In this document: one piece after another, positions 4,081-13,261 of the stretch | How the letters are laid out: each line of letters opens with the position of its first letter | How positions within the stretch are numbered: the stretch's first letter is position 1 | IMG/VR virus record: IMGVR_UViG_3300043570_000986 | Coordinates: 1 to 64,000 of that record | DNA length: 64,000 bases | Origin: a virus | Reading direction: 5' to 3' (one strand) | Notes under the pieces: model-generated | Database searches by the model: none | Seen by the model: the letters and a program-made list of their open reading frames with translations, nothing else | Told to the model about the DNA's origin: nothing | Program-made: the position numbers and the translations under genes

Positions 4081-4380
4081 ATAATTTTAGTTTAATTGGT
4101 TTAAGTTTAAAAAAACAGGCTTTGCACCTGATTGAATGCTTCATGTTTATGTATTAAAGACCCATAAAATCTAATAATACAACTACCTAGTTAAAGGACA
4201 GCATTTGAGTAATTTGTTAAATGTAAGTTAATGCACAAACAGGTACATGACTACCTTACAAACATTAACTTAACATTTAACTAATATTTTAAATAAAGGT
4301 TTAACCAACTAACCTCAAAGGAGTGTTTTTACAGAACACTTAAACTGTATTAGGACAACTATCACATAACCTAATATAAG

Positions 4381-4454
4381 GTATGATAGTGGGAATTGAA
4401 CCCACTACCTCCTGATTAATATCAGGTGCTCATACACAACGAGCTATATCATAC
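4381..4454 (-). tRNA. tRNA-like gene or pseudo-tRNA with a 6-nt anticodon loop; isotype undetermined
   Basis: Cloverleaf: GTATGATA/TATCATAC acceptor, GCTC/GAGC D-stem, CCTGA/TCAGG anticodon stem, GTGGG-TTCAATT-CCCAC T-arm; no D-loop GG, no encoded CCA. Confidence 0.65.
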
Positions 4455-5811: not shown

Positions 5812-6012
5812 TTAGAAATTGTTTTTTTTGTTGTTAAATTCAATATGTAGAATACCATTTTCATAATATCCTTTAAGAGTATCATTTTTAGTAATAGATT
5901 GATACTCTTCTGGTAAATCTATTTTAACATCTGAAATAATTGTTATAATTATAAGGAATATTCCAGTTATTATAAAATTTACAATAACTGACTGTATTAT
6001 TAATTTTTTCAT
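5812..6012 (-). CDS. membrane-anchored small protein, 66 aa
   Basis: N-terminal TM helix. Confidence 0.7.
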   Translation of the reverse strand: MKKLIIQSVIVNFIITGIFLIIITIISDVKIDLPEEYQSITKNDTLKGYYENGILHIEFNNKKNNF

Positions 6013-6049
6013 TTTTAATAGTTTTTGATTGTTAATAATTATTTAATTT

Positions 6050-6590
6050 AAATCCCCAGGCGACCACCGTTAAGAGATTTTGTATTATTTATTTAGAAAC
6101 CTTGGGCAATTTGTAGACCCCAAGATTCCTCCTTGATAAGTATAATATATTAGTAATTAATTAGATTACCCATATTATAGTATCTCACGTAGCTCTTAAT
6201 GTGTTAATTAGACACCTATCACCATTCTACGATTACAAGTTTTAGTCAACACTTGTTATATCTATTTACAAATCAAGTTGTAAATCTTTTTAATTCATTA
6301 TTGAATTAAAGTATTTTATCTTAAGCACTTGGTTGTAATATTGGAAGTCTAGACCTACTCTACTTTTATTTTCCCAAAGGAAATGGTTAGGTTACTTTGC
6401 TATAAGCCATCTATTACAACTTAGTGCATTAGGAATGTGTTAAGCTTATTAATAGTATTATTTTAAAACGTGACCTGTACCTGCAACTGACCACAGTTTA
6501 GCATTAAATGGTATTTTACAGCAATCATCTTAAAATTGAAAGTTTACCCAATTAAGGTAGAATTCCCTTTGAGAATTCTTTAGTTTATTA
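6050..6590. ncRNA. candidate large structured non-coding element
   Basis: No ORF; at least eight local and long-range inverted repeats. Confidence 0.4.
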
Positions 6591-6857
6591 GTTAATCTGT
6601 TTATTTTTAATGAGTGGTAAGTTCATTTATTTTCAACAAGCTAATAAACGACACTACATCTGAGTGCCATACTTTCTGTTTTAAACTATTAAATAAGCTA
6701 TGTATATAATAGGGTAAGTTATAATGAGGTTAATTGAAAAAGAGGTGAAATGTATTGGAAGGGAAGTGTAACCCACTGATACCAACACTTTACTACAATT
6801 TGTAGCAATTGTTTGCTATATATTGTCCAACATTTGTATATTATTTGTTAGTCAACT

Positions 6858-6881
6858 AATAAACAACTCCCCGAAGGGGGA
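6858..6881 (-). terminator. C(UUCG)G hairpin terminator after 6884..7129
   Basis: Minus strand CCCC-TTCG-GGGA followed by GTTGTTTATT. Confidence 0.6.
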
Positions 6882-6883
6882 TA

Positions 6884-7129
6884 CTATAAGGTAAAACTCC
6901 TTATAGCATCCTTAGCATTGAATAATACATATGCTTCAGCATCTAATGTATTACCTTTAGCATCTTCAAGTCCTTTCTTCAAGTATGCAGGCTTGCTCTC
7001 ATCAAATTTATGAGCAACAATAATCTTGATACCTTTAGCAGTACCAAAAGCATGCTTACCTTCAGTGTACTGGTTGAATTCAATAGTTTCAACATCTAAC
7101 ATTTCTTTAAAATCTTGTAATGAGATCAT
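6884..7129 (-). CDS. hypothetical protein, 81 aa; first gene of the leftward unit
   Basis: ORF track; followed by a terminator. Confidence 0.8.
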   Translation of the reverse strand: MISLQDFKEMLDVETIEFNQYTEGKHAFGTAKGIKIIVAHKFDESKPAYLKKGLEDAKGNTLDAEAYVLFNAKDAIRSFTL

Positions 7130-7658: not shown

Positions 7659-7780
7659 TGGCTAGTACATCAGAATTTGAACAACAACAGTTTTGGGAAG
7701 ATAAACCTATTGAGGTTATCTTAGGGGATAACTCTTCCTGGGAATTAACAAATAAGCATAATAATGAGAACAAAATCTAA
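7658..7780 (+). CDS. small acidic protein, 40 aa (MASTSEFEQQ...)
   Basis: Hand-translated; TAATG coupling; fills the gap between neighbours. Confidence 0.55.
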   Translation: MASTSEFEQQQFWEDKPIEVILGDNSSWELTNKHNNENKI

Positions 7781-7976
7781 GAATTTTAATGACTCCCAGG
7801 TAAAAGGAATATTACCTGATGGATCAATATACCTTAAAATGGGTGTAACCAAGAAACACTATAATGATAAACTAGATTATGAAGATATGGATCAGATTAA
7901 TGAGAGTTTACTTATGGCTGAAAAAATTAACAAATTTTATTTATTAACAGGGACTAGTCCTATAGTTGAGGAGTAA
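7764..7976 (+). CDS. hypothetical protein, 70 aa
   Basis: ORF track. Confidence 0.7.
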   Translation: MRTKSKNFNDSQVKGILPDGSIYLKMGVTKKHYNDKLDYEDMDQINESLLMAEKINKFYLLTGTSPIVEE

Positions 7977-7978
7977 TT

Positions 7979-8161
7979 ATGAAATTGATATATGATTTAC
8001 AATCAATACCAAAAGATATGAGTATTGAAGAATTTTTAAACTTTGTACATACTGAAAAAATAGTTTTCTGGGATTCTTCTAGGGGAGGTGGTATAGCTCC
8101 AATAGTTGAACCAGATTCAGGTTTACAAATTAAAGATGTTTCTAAAGATTTAACATCTTAA
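7979..8161 (+). CDS. hypothetical protein, 60 aa
   Basis: ORF track. Confidence 0.7.
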   Translation: MKLIYDLQSIPKDMSIEEFLNFVHTEKIVFWDSSRGGGIAPIVEPDSGLQIKDVSKDLTS

Positions 8162-8162
8162 A

Positions 8163-8194
8163 TTAGGATATTGTCTAAAAATAGTGTATATTTA
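8163..8194 (+). promoter_or_regulatory. promoter upstream of candidate ncRNA
   Basis: TTAG-N20-TATATTTA. Confidence 0.5.
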
Positions 8195-8199
8195 AATGT

Positions 8200-8528
8200 A
8201 CTCTAACTTAAACAGTTAGTCACCAGGGAACACCTAATAAGTTAACACCTGGTTAGAAGTTGGATAGTAGTCCGCACTCTTGAAATAATAGAGATTATAG
8301 CAGACAAGGTTTCTCCAATAGGTACAAAAAAGGTTATAAGTGAAATTCTATAGCTGCTACAAGAGGTATGAAGTATCCTCCTGAATTAACAGGATCAAAG
8401 TAAGCAGACACCTAGGCAACTAGGGAGGGTTAAAGACAGATAGATATAAGTTTATAATTAATCCAAACATCTAGTGTACAAACTGGAAGGGGAATATTAT
8501 GTCTTGTAGATAACTAAGTTAGTTATAT
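8200..8528 (+). ncRNA. candidate ~330-nt structured ncRNA
   Basis: Own promoter, no ORF, about 10 stems including CCTAG-GCAA-CTAGG (GNRA loop). Confidence 0.55.
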
Positions 8529-8534
8529 AATTTA

Positions 8535-8566
8535 TTTGGTTATTATAATTAAATCAGTTATATTTG
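8535..8566 (+). promoter_or_regulatory. consensus Bacteroidota promoter
   Basis: TTTG-N20-TATATTTG, exact -33/-7 consensus. Confidence 0.8.
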
Positions 8567-8570
8567 ATGT

Positions 8571-8654
8571 ATGGAATTAAACAATTTAAATTTAGTACAC
8601 CTACTAATAGGATTAGGTATATCAATTTGTGCTTATTTTAAAGATAATAAATAA
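8571..8654 (+). CDS. 27-aa hydrophobic peptide, probably leaderless (MELNNLNLVHLLIGLGISICAYFKDNK)
   Basis: ATG 4 nt after the -7 box; TAATG coupling to the next gene. Confidence 0.55.
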   Translation: MELNNLNLVHLLIGLGISICAYFKDNK

Positions 8655-8974
8655 TGGAATATACACTTAAACTCCCTATATCTAAAAAGACTGAATATCT
8701 TATTCAAATGTTAAATCCTGTTATGGGTAATTTAACAGATAAAGAGATTGAGATATTAGTTGTCATTGCTGATAAGCAAATATCTATTATTAATAAGGAT
8801 ACTAGAACAGATGTTCGTATGTTCTTAAATATGGATAAGTTTAACTTTAATAATTATATTAAGAAGTTAGTTACTAAGAAAGTATTACAACAAGTAGATA
8901 GGTTAACTCTTAAAGTTAATCCTAATATTCTACATATCTTAAAACATGATTCAGTTAATTTAAGTTTTGTATAA
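8654..8974 (+). CDS. winged-HTH DNA-binding protein
   Basis: LTDKEIEIL...NNYIKKLVTKKVL pattern. Confidence 0.6.
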   Translation: MEYTLKLPISKKTEYLIQMLNPVMGNLTDKEIEILVVIADKQISIINKDTRTDVRMFLNMDKFNFNNYIKKLVTKKVLQQVDRLTLKVNPNILHILKHDSVNLSFV

Positions 8975-9204: not shown

Positions 9205-9409
9205 ACTTAAAGAGATATTAAATGGATTTGCTAACTTAGTTTGGTCAAATCCTAGAGTTGAAAAAATAGCACATGATCGTGCAATAATTTGTGCAGCATG
9301 TGATACTAATGTTAATAATTTTTGCAGTATTCAAAAAGGTGGATGTGGATGTTTTATTCCAGCCAAAACTTCTAGTGAATATTCAAGTTGTCCTAAGAAG
9401 TTTTGGTAA
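9197..9409 (+). CDS. Cys-rich Zn-binding protein
   Basis: CAAC...C...CGC...CPKKFW. Confidence 0.7.
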   Translation: MSKLKEILNGFANLVWSNPRVEKIAHDRAIICAACDTNVNNFCSIQKGGCGCFIPAKTSSEYSSCPKKFW

Positions 9410-9978
9410 TGAATAGTTATATTACAAAAGATCAAGGATTATATATGATATGGTCTAATGTAAAACCAGACTATTATTACATTGGTTCTTCTAATAATAT
9501 TAGAAGACGTTATAATGAACATATGTCTTATTTTAAAAGAAATAAACATAGTAATACTAAATTACAAAACCATGTAAATAAATACGGAATTAATGATTTA
9601 AAATTTTGCGTACATATAATAGATAATTCTTTAAATAATAAAGAGTTAAGAGAATTAGAACAAAAAGAAATACTATATTTTAATACTTATAAAAAAGGAT
9701 TTAATTTAACAGAAAATACAGAACATGCAACAATGTCTGAAAGTGGTAAATTGAGATTAAGTTTAAAAGCTAAAGAAAGACAATCTACTAAAGAAGTAAA
9801 AGAAAAATTAGTTATACAAAATAGTGGTGAAAAAAATCCTAATTCAAAATTAACAAATGCAGATATATTATTTATTAGAAATAATTTGCATTTAAAAAGA
9901 AAAGAATTATCTTTACTTTTCAATGTTTCATATAAAACAATATGGAGAGTTAAAAACAATAGAACTTATGTAATATGA
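9403..9978 (+). mobile_element. free-standing GIY-YIG homing endonuclease
   Basis: GLY...YYIGSS, RRYNEH, ELEQKEI, GFN; C-terminal GEKNPNSKLT plus HTH. Confidence 0.85.
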
Positions 9979-11164: not shown

Positions 11165-13261
11165 ATGCAAAATAATAATCCATATATACAACATATAGAA
11201 TATTTTGAATCTACTAAAGAATTTAGTTATTTAGCTGAAGTTTACAATAAAACAGGAATGTATACTAATACAATAGTTGGAACAATTGAATATTTAGATT
11301 TTTGGACACAAGTTAAAGATTATTGTATTAATGGTTTTGAAAACTCAAAAGGTTTTAAAGTCACAGGTCAACATTTCTTTTATCTTAACTTCTGTCCAAT
11401 ATTAGGTCTTAATGAAAAGACTGGAAAGAAATCTAAAATCTTTCCTAGGTTTATAGATTTAGATTATGAGTTCTTCCACATGGTAGAATATTGTAGACTA
11501 AATCAAAAATCATTAGTTGCAGTAAAAGGTAGACGTCAAGGATGGTCTTACAAAGCTGCAGCAATATGTACACATGAGTTCTATTTTTACCCAGATAGTA
11601 AAGCAGTAATAGGAGCATTCTTTAGTTCATTTAGTCAGAATACCATGAACATGGTTGTAGATAATTCTAACTTTATTAATACTAATACTGAGTTTAGAAA
11701 ACAACGTAATCCTGACCTTAAAGATTTTATTAAAGCTAGATACCAAGCTACAGTAAGTGGTGTTAAAGTTTGGAAAGGATTTAACTCTGAAGTTAGAGCA
11801 ATATCATTTAAAGATAATCCTACTGCTGCAGTTGGTTTAAGTGCTTCCTGGTTAATCTTAGATGAGGCAGGTGTATTTAACAATATTACAGATACTTATG
11901 GATATACTGAACCACTTATTAAAGATGGTTCTAAATATACAGGGGTAGCATTAATATTTGGATCTTCTGGAGATATGGATTCAGGTAGTAAATATTTCTA
12001 TGAGATGTTTACTAATCCTGAAAAGTATAACATGTTAGATTTTGAAGATCCATTTAATCCTAATGGTAGAATAGGATTCTTTAGTTCTGCTACAAAAGGT
12101 AGGTTAGGTTTATGCCTTAATCCAGATTCTAAATGGTATAAAAAACACATGGTAGATGAAGACGGTAATTCTAATTATGAAGCAGCACAAGATGATATTG
12201 ATTTCTTAAGATCTAAAGCTAAACATGGTTTAGATCCTAAAGCAATTCATAATATTACTACTCAGTTCCCATGTACTTGGAAAGAAGCATTCTTAAGAAA
12301 TAAAGGTAATGTATTTGGTTCTCCAGAAATGTTAGAATGGTTAGGTCATTTAGAAAATACTCCTAGTCTTAGAGGTCAAGCTCAAAAGGGAGAATTATTT
12401 TTTGATGAAGGAACTGTTAAATGGAGGCCTAGTAATGAATTAAATTATATTACAGATTTTCCATTAAGAAAAGATCCTAAATCTGGAGAATCATTTTCAA
12501 CAGATAGTTGTGTAGTAATCTGGGAACACCCTGAGAAACAAGATAATGGAGAAATACCTAATTACTTATACATTGCAGGATGTGACCCTTATGATCAAGA
12601 TAAGTCAGAATCTGGTTCCTTAGGTTCATTTTTTGTATATAAAAGATTTTATAGAGCAGATAGAACTCATGATATTATAGTTGCTGAATATACTTCTAGA
12701 CCAGATACTGCAGAACAATTCTATGAAAACTGTAGAAAGTTATGTATATATTACAACTCTAAAGTATTGTATGAGAATCAGTTAAAAGGTTTAAAAGTAT
12801 ACTTTGAGCAAAAGAATGCATTACAATATATGTGTGAACAACCAGGTATTATTAGAGATATTGTTAAAGACTCTAGAGTACAACGAGGATATGGTATTCA
12901 CATGAATAGAGGAACTAATGGTTCAAGTGGTATTAAAGATCAATGTGAGTTATATCTTAAGAAGTGGTTATATGAAGAAGTTAGTGGTGAAACTGAAGGT
13001 ACTAAAGTGTGTAGGTTTCAAACTATTAAATCAATACCATTACTTAAAGAATTAATAGCTTATGATAGAGATATTAATACAGATAGAGTTATAGCACTAA
13101 TGCTGTGTGTATTACAAACATACGAATTACATAGAATACATGTGGAAGAGCTATTAGACATGAAAACAACGTCTGGTGATTTCTTAGAAAAAATATACCA
13201 AAAAAACCTTATATTTAACAGGAGGAATTCTCAATCCCAATTTAATCCAAGCAGAAACTAA
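11165..13261 (+). CDS. terL: terminase large subunit
   Basis: Walker A KGRRQGWS, Walker B LILDEAG, nuclease GCDPYD and NTDRV. Confidence 0.93.
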   Translation: MQNNNPYIQHIEYFESTKEFSYLAEVYNKTGMYTNTIVGTIEYLDFWTQVKDYCINGFENSKGFKVTGQHFFYLNFCPILGLNEKTGKKSKIFPRFIDLDYEFFHMVEYCRLNQKSLVAVKGRRQGWSYKAAAICTHEFYFYPDSKAVIGAFFSSFSQNTMNMVVDNSNFINTNTEFRKQRNPDLKDFIKARYQATVSGVKVWKGFNSEVRAISFKDNPTAAVGLSASWLILDEAGVFNNITDTYGYTEPLIKDGSKYTGVALIFGSSGDMDSGSKYFYEMFTNPEKYNMLDFEDPFNPNGRIGFFSSATKGRLGLCLNPDSKWYKKHMVDEDGNSNYEAAQDDIDFLRSKAKHGLDPKAIHNITTQFPCTWKEAFLRNKGNVFGSPEMLEWLGHLENTPSLRGQAQKGELFFDEGTVKWRPSNELNYITDFPLRKDPKSGESFSTDSCVVIWEHPEKQDNGEIPNYLYIAGCDPYDQDKSESGSLGSFFVYKRFYRADRTHDIIVAEYTSRPDTAEQFYENCRKLCIYYNSKVLYENQLKGLKVYFEQKNALQYMCEQPGIIRDIVKDSRVQRGYGIHMNRGTNGSSGIKDQCELYLKKWLYEEVSGETEGTKVCRFQTIKSIPLLKELIAYDRDINTDRVIALMLCVLQTYELHRIHVEELLDMKTTSGDFLEKIYQKNLIFNRRNSQSQFNPSRN

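Follow-up and report, generated by a model that had tools for sequence, protein, structure and literature searches.

A structured RNA behind its own predicted promoter, ahead of the packaging genes of freshwater crAss-like phages, points to a new RNA family

We describe a folded RNA of about 335 nt encoded on the + strand of the IMG/VR virus record IMGVR_UViG_3300043570_000986 (87,245 bp), the first 64 kb of which were analyzed and are called the window throughout. On the + strand of this window, a host-type promoter is followed by the RNA (~8199-8535), an AT-rich hairpin and a second promoter. A reading made from the letters of the DNA without database searches (hereafter the sequence-only reading) had proposed an undescribed, stand-alone structured RNA at this position. 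The comparative evidence supports an undescribed structured RNA that is read from the + strand and has its own promoter, and we regard the existence of the RNA and the fold given below as nearly certain. Because the RNA is uncatalogued and resembles no known family, we rate it as a new RNA family, designated type A, which appears to be carried by a clade of freshwater crAss-like phages.

Twenty syntenic loci were gathered through the 106-aa protein encoded downstream of the RNA, and blastn aligned positions 8159-8577 in 16 of them at 74-87% identity, which is similar to that of the flanking genes. An exact 29-nt core pattern matched 23 viral contigs, a search with the large terminase (TerL) added 80 loci at 50-96% TerL identity, and a degenerate pattern matched 19 metagenome contigs from lakes and activated sludge. 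No match to a 28-nt degenerate pattern turned up among 185,579 species genomes of bacteria and archaea, a result that comes from a single pattern and does not prove absence. With nhmmer profiles, the element was located in 111 of the 140 loci fetched (52 distinct sequences), always on the strand of the terminase gene and 1613-4169 nt upstream of it. Syntenic homologues and covariation had been named as the way to check the proposal, and across these loci the fold is indeed kept by compensatory changes. Three loci that were first thought to lack the element (L010, L014, and L015) bear a very divergent copy.

A covariance model of the core helices PB, PC, PD, PE, and PF (model R1; 162 positions, 22 pairs), which defines type A together with the loops UAUGAAGUAU and AAUUAA, scored 162.1 bits on the window (E 5.9e-30) and returned 53 matches at E ≤0.001 in 54 sources. 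Type A is present in 44 of the 49 distinct terminase-upstream stretches that offer at least 3.5 kb of upstream sequence (43 by nhmmer, and L010 by the covariance model). On the whole records of Fpv20, cr10_1, ProJPt-Bp1, crAss001, and Carjivirus communis, R1 found nothing significant; the best score (E 0.55) fell within a dpsA-like coding sequence of crAss001. A nucleotide search of deposited phages, in near or distant mode, likewise gave no similarity. A repeat or the template of a diversity-generating retroelement was ruled out as the identity of the element by R1 and a repeat search, which found a single copy in the 87-kb genome. The first nucleotides of the RNA differ among subgroups: in L086, L087, L088, L094, and L131, a Shine-Dalgarno-like AGGAGG(U), perfect or nearly so, opens the RNA immediately ahead of the first hairpin, and in the remaining subgroups the RNA opens with UGUAC or UAUAGGC.

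The fold of the single sequence is unconvincing (+ strand, z -1.65; - strand, z -0.44), and its minimum-energy structure omits the conserved long-range helices. The alignments of the family support eleven helices, and for nine of these the support includes compensatory changes. A column-pair scan of a 36-sequence MAFFT alignment recovered five helices with at least two covarying pairs each. For the core from PB to PF in the MAFFT alignment of 36 sequences, in which PD is one column off, 91.7% of cells are paired compared with 70.7% after shuffling, and 18 of 23 pairs show two-sided changes. Helices H2 and PX, counted in a MAFFT alignment of 35 sequences, reach 99.3% compared with 73.7%, with 10 of 12 pairs two-sided. 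In an alignment fitted to R1 (49 distinct rows), 97.5% of the core cells are paired compared with 73.1% after shuffling, 18 of 22 pairs are two-sided, and shifting the 3′ partners by 1-3 columns leaves at most 48.9% paired. None of 500 shuffles was as high in any of these three counts. Because the last alignment was fitted to the structure, its counts lean toward structure, whereas the MAFFT counts do not. Moreover, G-U cells far outnumber A-C cells (65 vs. 3); therefore, the RNA is read from the + strand, as the sequence-only reading had argued from the GNRA loop.

These counts bear directly on an explanation at the level of DNA, according to which the position holds a pac site, an origin or a set of protein-binding repeats and no RNA is made. 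The location upstream of the packaging genes and the dense inverted repeats would suit such an element. However, the pairing is kept through double changes, and the G-T tolerance behind the 65 vs. 3 count is seen on one strand only. In addition, the genome carries its direct terminal repeats at the ends of the 87,245-bp record instead of at the RNA element, and no repeat of the element is found elsewhere in the genome. We consider this explanation hardly credible.

The fold has two parts, both on the + strand: in the 5′ domain, H1 and H2 precede PX and its variable arm, and in the 3′ core, PB closes a multiloop and is followed by PG. At the 5′ end, the hairpin H1 (8204-8209/8215-8220) corresponds to a hairpin of at least 4 bp in all 35 distinct sequences, although the stem sequences are unrelated. 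The adjoining H2 (8222-8227/8248-8253), which has a 20-nt loop, is two-sided in 6 of 6 pairs, with 99.5% of cells paired in 35 sequences. Between H2 and PX lies the junction UAGAA (8254-8258), whose columns are nearly invariant; together with the flanking U8253 of the last H2 pair and G8259 at the start of PX, it reads UUAGAAG. The long-range helix PX (8259-8264/8314-8319; 99.0% of cells paired, 4 of 6 pairs two-sided) encloses the variable arm (8265-8313), which contains a hairpin (8277-8280/8290-8293) with a conserved AAAUA-type loop and 3 of 4 pairs two-sided. A 45-nt insert in this arm occurs in L002, L003, L007, L008, and L044 and also in contigs from RNA libraries. The linker between PX and PB (8320-8346) is variable in architecture, and no common helix was established for it across the alignments.

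The multiloop closed by PB (8347-8351/8440-8444; 5 of 5 pairs two-sided, 97.5% of cells paired) contains a three-way junction, a hairpin and a conserved single strand. The junction is closed by PC (8354-8360/8400-8407), which has one bulge (5 of 7 pairs two-sided, 95.8% paired). Within it, PD (8364-8366/8377-8379; 2 of 3 two-sided, 97.2% paired) carries the nearly invariant 10-nt loop UAUGAAGUAU, and PE (8380-8383/8390-8393; 3 of 4 two-sided, 100% paired) carries the conserved loop AAUUAA. The change of PE from CCUG/CAGG to CUGG/CCAG in L010 illustrates the compensation. The hairpin PF (8411-8415/8420-8424; 3 of 3 modelled pairs two-sided, 98.5% paired) has a GCAA loop, which is GUAA or GAAA in many relatives but not all. 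The unpaired stretch GAGGGUUAAAGACAG (8425-8439), with the family form GGGYUnAAnAC, consists of invariant or nearly invariant columns. Behind the multiloop, PG (8471-8475/8482-8486) is two-sided in 4 of 5 pairs, with 87.5% of cells paired in 19 sequences. An additional helix that RNAalifold draws from the same number of sequences, 8311-8316/8489-8494, was rejected as part of the fold and is kept only as a possible alternative, since it conflicts with the far better supported PX.

Ten stems had been claimed from the letters alone; the relatives bear out seven of them and leave three unsupported. The stem ctaact/agttag is H1, ccagg/cctgg is H2, ctct/agag is the hairpin of the variable arm, and tctagt/actgga is PG, and the covariation in the core upholds gagg/cctc as PD, tcctg/cagga as PE, and cctag-GCAA-ctagg as PF. 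The short stem gga/tcc is paired in only 38.6% of cells. Both of the proposed long-range stems were wrong. The pairing tagcag/ctgcta holds in 66% of cells, and its 3′ arm really belongs to PC and pairs with 8400-8407; the pairing aagaca/tgtctt occurs in close relatives only, where both sides hardly vary, and when the whole family is counted it does not exceed the shuffled level. PX, PB, and PC, which are the true long-range helices, had been missed.

The claim that the RNA is undescribed survived the comparison with known families. A scan of the whole window with Rfam 15 (4227 models) at the gathering threshold returned only a tRNA at 4381-4453. This match concerns a tRNA-like gene on the - strand (4380-4453; 46.8 bits in Rfam) for which ARAGORN reads no anticodon ('tRNA-???', 'tt'). 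At E ≤10, positions 7900-8800 of the window and the divergent members L114, L030, and L087 gave only chance matches to small nucleolar RNAs, long noncoding RNAs, and flavivirus families, none of which reached even half its gathering score. The Rfam 15 list presumably includes group I and group II introns, small ribozymes, riboswitches, ROOL, GOLLD, and the phi29 packaging RNA (pRNA). Membership in ROOL or GOLLD was rejected because the window and the members gave no covariance-model match, and membership in the phi29-type pRNA was rejected for want of an Rfam match. A full-text literature search found no paper describing such an RNA.

The region of the RNA is free of long open reading frames (ORFs), as the sequence-only reading had noted: under translation table 11, the + strand holds no ORF of at least 30 aa in 8162-8653, between the stop codon of a 60-aa ORF (8159-8161) and the next long gene, which starts at 8654. 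A hidden gene read through recoding was also rejected, since reading TAG as Q, table 4, or TAA as Q opens no credible frame in this interval. The window is AT-rich, and the description of the element as relatively GC-rich agrees with a G+C content of 0.34-0.35 across 8175-8474 compared with 0.20-0.29 in the downstream flank.

The promoter that had been placed at 8163-8194 has its boxes at that position, and they are conserved in the relatives. This promoter, P1, comprises TTAG at 8163-8166, a 20-nt spacer and the -7 box TATATTTA at 8187-8194; the -33-like box is TTAG in the window, and most relatives read TTTG-N20-TATATTTG. The P1 boxes rank among the best conserved columns, and TATATTT is invariant in a 13-sequence alignment and is kept in nearly all of 36 and 53 rows. 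PMC9723704 gives TAnnTTTG, located at -12 to -5, as the -7 box for sigmaA in Flavobacterium psychrophilum, and this spacing puts the predicted start of the RNA near 8199. A loose promoter pattern is not enriched in the window (31 occurrences compared with 30.1 expected), and a sigma-70 scan misses P1. The promoter call therefore rests on conservation and the published Flavobacterium box, because the motif by itself is at chance level.

At the other end, the unit closes just before the next promoter, as had been stated. RNAalifold places a terminator-like AT-rich hairpin at 8510-8516/8520-8526 on the + strand, followed by a U-rich tract to 8537, and the pairs of this hairpin show one-sided and two-sided changes in the RNAalifold alignment. 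The second promoter, P2 (8535-8566, + strand), comprises TTTG at 8535-8538, a 20-nt spacer and TATATTTG at 8559-8566; it is conserved family-wide, as well as P1 is. P2 probably drives the downstream winged-helix-like gene; it is not part of the RNA itself.

In the remaining five of the 49 terminase-upstream stretches, the slot before the homologue of the 106-aa gene is taken by different elements, which are 330-450 nt long and likewise free of ORFs. These elements look unrelated to type A and were sorted into type B (L106:4160-4500, L078:733-1031, and L079:1481-1779) and type C (L107:1521-1760 and L111:1944-2142). Each of them is followed by a hairpin and accompanied by a promoter-like box, and at least one of its stems is visibly compensated. 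In type B, the compensated stem is TGTGA...TCACA in one form and GAATGG...CCATTC in another, and the terminator hairpin contains G+C; P2 is present in type C loci as well.

Transcript evidence comes from four runs recorded as RNA among the 24 listed, in the form of Logan contigs at depth 2-5. From a single study, two runs of lake metatranscriptomes gave a 313-nt contig that corresponds to 8226-8492 and a 261-nt contig that corresponds to 8224-8438; both belong to the longer-arm variant, have a depth of ~5 and lie wholly inside the RNA, and run X15 yielded no other part of the 2-kb stretch. A different study supplied a third contig, which covers 8308-8450 and is also wholly inside the RNA. In run X16, a 3476-nt contig at depth 85 represents a relative in which 881 letters replace 8195-8509, and the replacement is L010-like (a divergent RNA plus an inserted ORF) by its size only. 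In run X19, a contig joins the upstream gene to 8179-8255. The RNA-confined contigs from two studies are a weak hint of an abundant, discrete RNA.

The same contigs bear on the idea that the element is a self-cleaving or self-processing ribozyme or a degenerate self-splicing intron. The conserved fold is complex and its unpaired junction nucleotides do not vary, which would befit a ribozyme, and ORFs of the homing-endonuclease type are nearby (a GIY-YIG gene at 9403-9978 and the insert beside the RNA in L010). However, no group I, group II, or small-ribozyme family matched any of the four members at E ≤10. Moreover, with a promoter of its own and complete genes on either side, the element leaves no exons to join, and the contigs from RNA libraries run through the core without a joint; the sole skip, from 8269 to 8307, marks the substitution of the relatives' longer arm. 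We therefore consider catalysis or splicing quite improbable. A group I intron specifically was rejected, because RF00028 has no match in these members and the element, with its own promoter, sits between complete ORFs.

The sequence-only reading had suggested an RNA expressed late, with a packaging or scaffold RNA, a protein sponge, and a ribozyme as candidate roles. The reading that we favor, tentatively, is that of a free-standing, stable scaffold RNA that acts in trans. Host RNA polymerase would start at the Bacteroidota-type promoter, approximately 5 nt past the -7 box, and transcription would mostly halt at the AT-rich hairpin. The RNA, stabilized by its 5′ and 3′ hairpins, would then act in trans as a compactly folded scaffold. 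Because the loops and junctions are invariant, we propose that the binding surfaces are the loops UAUGAAGUAU and AAUUAA and the junctions UUAGAAG, GGGYUnAAnAC, and GAAGGGG. The partner during infection may be a phage protein, a host protein, or further copies of the RNA. The description of the RNA as stand-alone is plausible in view of its promoter, the hairpin, P2, and the contigs confined to it, although two relatives lack the hairpin and ORFs intervene in others.

Several observations weigh against a free-standing RNA. L019 and L020 are the relatives without the AT-rich hairpin, and a generic terminator scan, which needs three G-C pairs, does not call this hairpin. The contigs are of low depth and are not mapped transcript ends, and DNA carry-over is possible. 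In L010, the RNA is separated from the hairpin by a 184-aa ORF, and the alignment rows of L004 suggest a small one there; judged by this arrangement, the RNA in these phages would be a 5′ leader. No partner protein was identified, and the adjacent 106-aa protein is only weakly like a DNA-binding winged helix-turn-helix regulator. Finally, a Shine-Dalgarno-like AAGGGG-N6-AUG mini-ORF that ends in the hairpin resembles a cis-acting device, and a cis element would likewise be expected to keep one constant place at the start of an operon.

The inserted ORFs (L010:1516-2070 and L004 ~2533-2854) stand exactly between the 3′ end of the RNA and the block of hairpin and P2. The C-terminal half of the L010 protein looks endonuclease-like by sequence inspection alone. 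The insert shared by L004 and L063 encodes a small protein; in L013 and L020, this protein is encoded past P2 instead.

A leader role thus stays in view, because L019 and L020 are without the hairpin and ORFs separate the RNA from the hairpin elsewhere. According to this explanation, the main rival, which we consider possible but doubtful, the element works in cis as a leader or attenuator and controls whether transcription from P1 continues past the hairpin into the operon of packaging and structural genes. At 8486-8513 on the + strand, the invariant GAAGGGG (8486-8492) is followed six bases on by an AUG (8499-8501) that opens a frame of four codons, and the stop codon UAA (8511-8513) lies inside the 5′ arm of the hairpin (8510-8516). 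Since the mini-ORF stops in this arm, a translating ribosome could prevent termination; given the Shine-Dalgarno-like AAGGGG, the AUG and a mini-ORF of 2-4 codons, the hairpin would be melted by a ribosome. All of 36 sequences keep the GGGG, and ATG or GTG follows it by 5-7 nt in 28 of 39 distinct tails, with a median frame of four codons among the 25 evaluable tails. However, ATA, ATT, GTA, or TTA replaces the start codon in the other 11 tails, and short frames are to be expected in such AT-rich DNA.

In such a device, the folded domain would set the access to AAGGGG, for example, by pairing it with the C-rich segment 8311-8316 in place of PX. The rejected RNAalifold helix joins exactly this segment to 8489-8494 (GGGGAA), and because the segment belongs to PX too, the two pairings compete, as a switch would need. 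However, just one of the six pairs of that helix is two-sided, and it includes broken cells. The genomic position also suits a leader, since the element heads a run of + strand genes that extends to ~61 kb; ORFs between the RNA and the hairpin are tolerated, and transcripts of L019 and L020 must run on because no hairpin is present there. However, the conserved P2 directly behind the hairpin means that the downstream genes can be served separately, which makes read-through unnecessary. Moreover, types B and C, which look unrelated and fill the same slot, have no AAGGGG-AUG. In a variant similar to put or EAR, the RNA would modify the polymerase directly. The length of ~335 nt far exceeds that of known antiterminator RNAs. 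According to PMC6847099, Bacteroidota mRNAs are generally without Shine-Dalgarno sequences and the use of such sequences in this phylum is rare, which argues against a ribosome-dependent attenuator.

A more specific form of this idea, which we rate as unlikely, casts the RNA as a riboregulator through which the phage would exploit ribosomes by means of GAAGGGG, its pairing with the 3′ end of 16S rRNA, and the AUG six bases on. Bacteroidota ribosomes normally hide their anti-Shine-Dalgarno tail, and we take GAAGGGG to be complementary to the 16S 3′ end. If this idea is true, the riboregulator would open the hairpin and thereby license the ~50-kb packaging and structural operon, or it would trap a special pool of ribosomes. 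The fold would then gate ribosome recruitment through the alternative C-rich pairings, PX on the one hand and 8311-8316/8489-8494 on the other, and the RNAs that fill this slot in different crAss-like lineages would have arisen independently.

Another role, and again an unlikely one, is that of a self-assembling, RNA-only multimer similar to ROOL or GOLLD, or of a virion-associated packaging or procapsid RNA similar to that of phi29. The RNA is large and ornate, has loops of the GNRA type (in PF, and in an extra hairpin of divergent members), and is phage-borne, 2-3 kb from the terminase gene; its sequence drifts, and its fold is kept. The nearly invariant AAUUAA loop includes a self-complementary tetranucleotide, but the loop variants AGAUAA, AAUAAA, and AAGUAA lose the palindrome. 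The lack of any Rfam match, with ROOL, GOLLD, and the phi29 pRNA presumably on the family list, also speaks against this role.

The genes of the window run leftward up to ~7.3 kb and rightward from 7446 onward. The rightward genes include the large terminase (698 aa, 11165-13261), an adjoining ORF of 857 aa, and an ORF of 4215 aa. The terminase is 35.6% identical to that of the gut crAss-like phage cr10_1, 30% identical to those of Flavobacterium phages, and 28% identical to that of crAss001. In addition, lake-water metagenomes contain DNA of the RNA-bearing stretch. The terminase relatives and the occurrence in lake water identify the source as a freshwater crAss-like phage, and the phage relatives and the promoter type point to a probable host in the Bacteroidota. 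In the gut crAss-like phages cr118_1, cr56_1, and cr7_1 (MT774379.1 / NC_055872.1, NC_055890.1, and NC_055895.1), the terminase match is split into two pieces across ~3 kb, which is the pattern that an intron or an intein in the terminase gene would give.

Past P2, the genes follow in the order of the 106-aa gene, a small protein with a sub-threshold HU-type match, the GIY-YIG homing endonuclease, small ORFs, and the terminase. The 106-aa protein, which accompanies element types A, B, and C alike, weakly resembles regulators of the winged-helix type (3r0a at E 0.0047) and is CodY-HTH-like by language-model features. The GIY-YIG-type gene (9403-9978), between the RNA and the terminase, has PHROG matches at E 5.7e-14, 1.4e-12, and 5.5e-10. 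The scans of the neighbouring genes with PHROG and Pfam gave no lead related to RNA.

The immediate flanks of the RNA vary among relatives. The 60-aa ORF just 5′ of the RNA (7979-8161) is missing from most relatives, in which the promoter of the RNA stands directly behind a 70-aa gene homologous to 7764-7976; its loss is also visible as a 182-nt skip in one contig from an RNA library. Between P2 and the 106-aa gene, an 83-nt stretch (8571-8654) is apparently missing in L002, L003, and most other close relatives, and L004-L006 align across it at 91.6%. This stretch encodes a 27-aa hydrophobic peptide, MELNNLNLVHLLIGLGISICAYFKDNK, whose stop codon overlaps the ATG at 8654; in relatives without the stretch, the 106-aa gene begins where the 27-aa ORF begins. 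Elsewhere in the window, 6012-6884 holds no listed ORF of at least 30 aa besides scraps of 31-35 aa.

Large, intricately folded RNAs with strong covariation are rare, and to our knowledge, nearly all of those that are understood are ribozymes, riboswitches, or the cores of RNA-protein machines. CrAss-like phages are among the most abundant phage groups, and their gene regulation is poorly known. An RNA of ~335 nt with eleven supported helices is essentially universal in a crAss-like clade, and in sister lineages, folded elements that look unrelated occupy the same slot, between two host-type promoters at the start of the packaging and structural genes. This pattern suggests a general RNA-based function that protein-centred annotation has missed. 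The alignment, the model, and the coordinates of the type A RNA are now available. The novelty lies in the RNA family and is not claimed for a mechanism.

Known systems resemble this RNA in part. In phage lambda, a short promoter-proximal transcript from PR′ ends at the terminator tR′ before the late genes, and in attenuators, a mini-ORF overlaps the terminator. The type A locus would share the short promoter-proximal transcript and the terminator, and its putative mini-ORF would overlap the latter as in attenuators. However, those leaders have no large conserved folds, and unlike attenuators, the locus described here has 11 of 39 tails without a standard start codon and belongs to phages of a host phylum that rarely uses Shine-Dalgarno sequences. 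The put RNA of HK022 and the EAR RNA of Bacillus, which are ~70-120 nt long with two-hairpin or small folds and act only in cis, offer a likeness of layout only: an RNA just behind a promoter that heads a long operon, with a terminator after it. The RNA described here differs in its length of ~335 nt and in the second promoter behind its hairpin.

The phi29 pRNA is a phage-encoded structured RNA linked to packaging, and it shares with type A a drifting sequence and a conserved fold. In contrast, crAss-like phages package by a terminase-portal system, and the RNA described here matches no Rfam family. ROOL and GOLLD are large, intricately folded noncoding RNAs that are often borne by phages or prophages, were found by comparative genomics, and have GNRA-type loops. 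The type A RNA resembles them in its large and intricate fold, its phage-borne nature, and its GNRA-type loops. It differs from them in its smaller size (~335 nt), in being unmatched in Rfam, in its confinement, as far as searched, to a crAss-like clade, and in its single fixed slot between two promoters upstream of the terminase.

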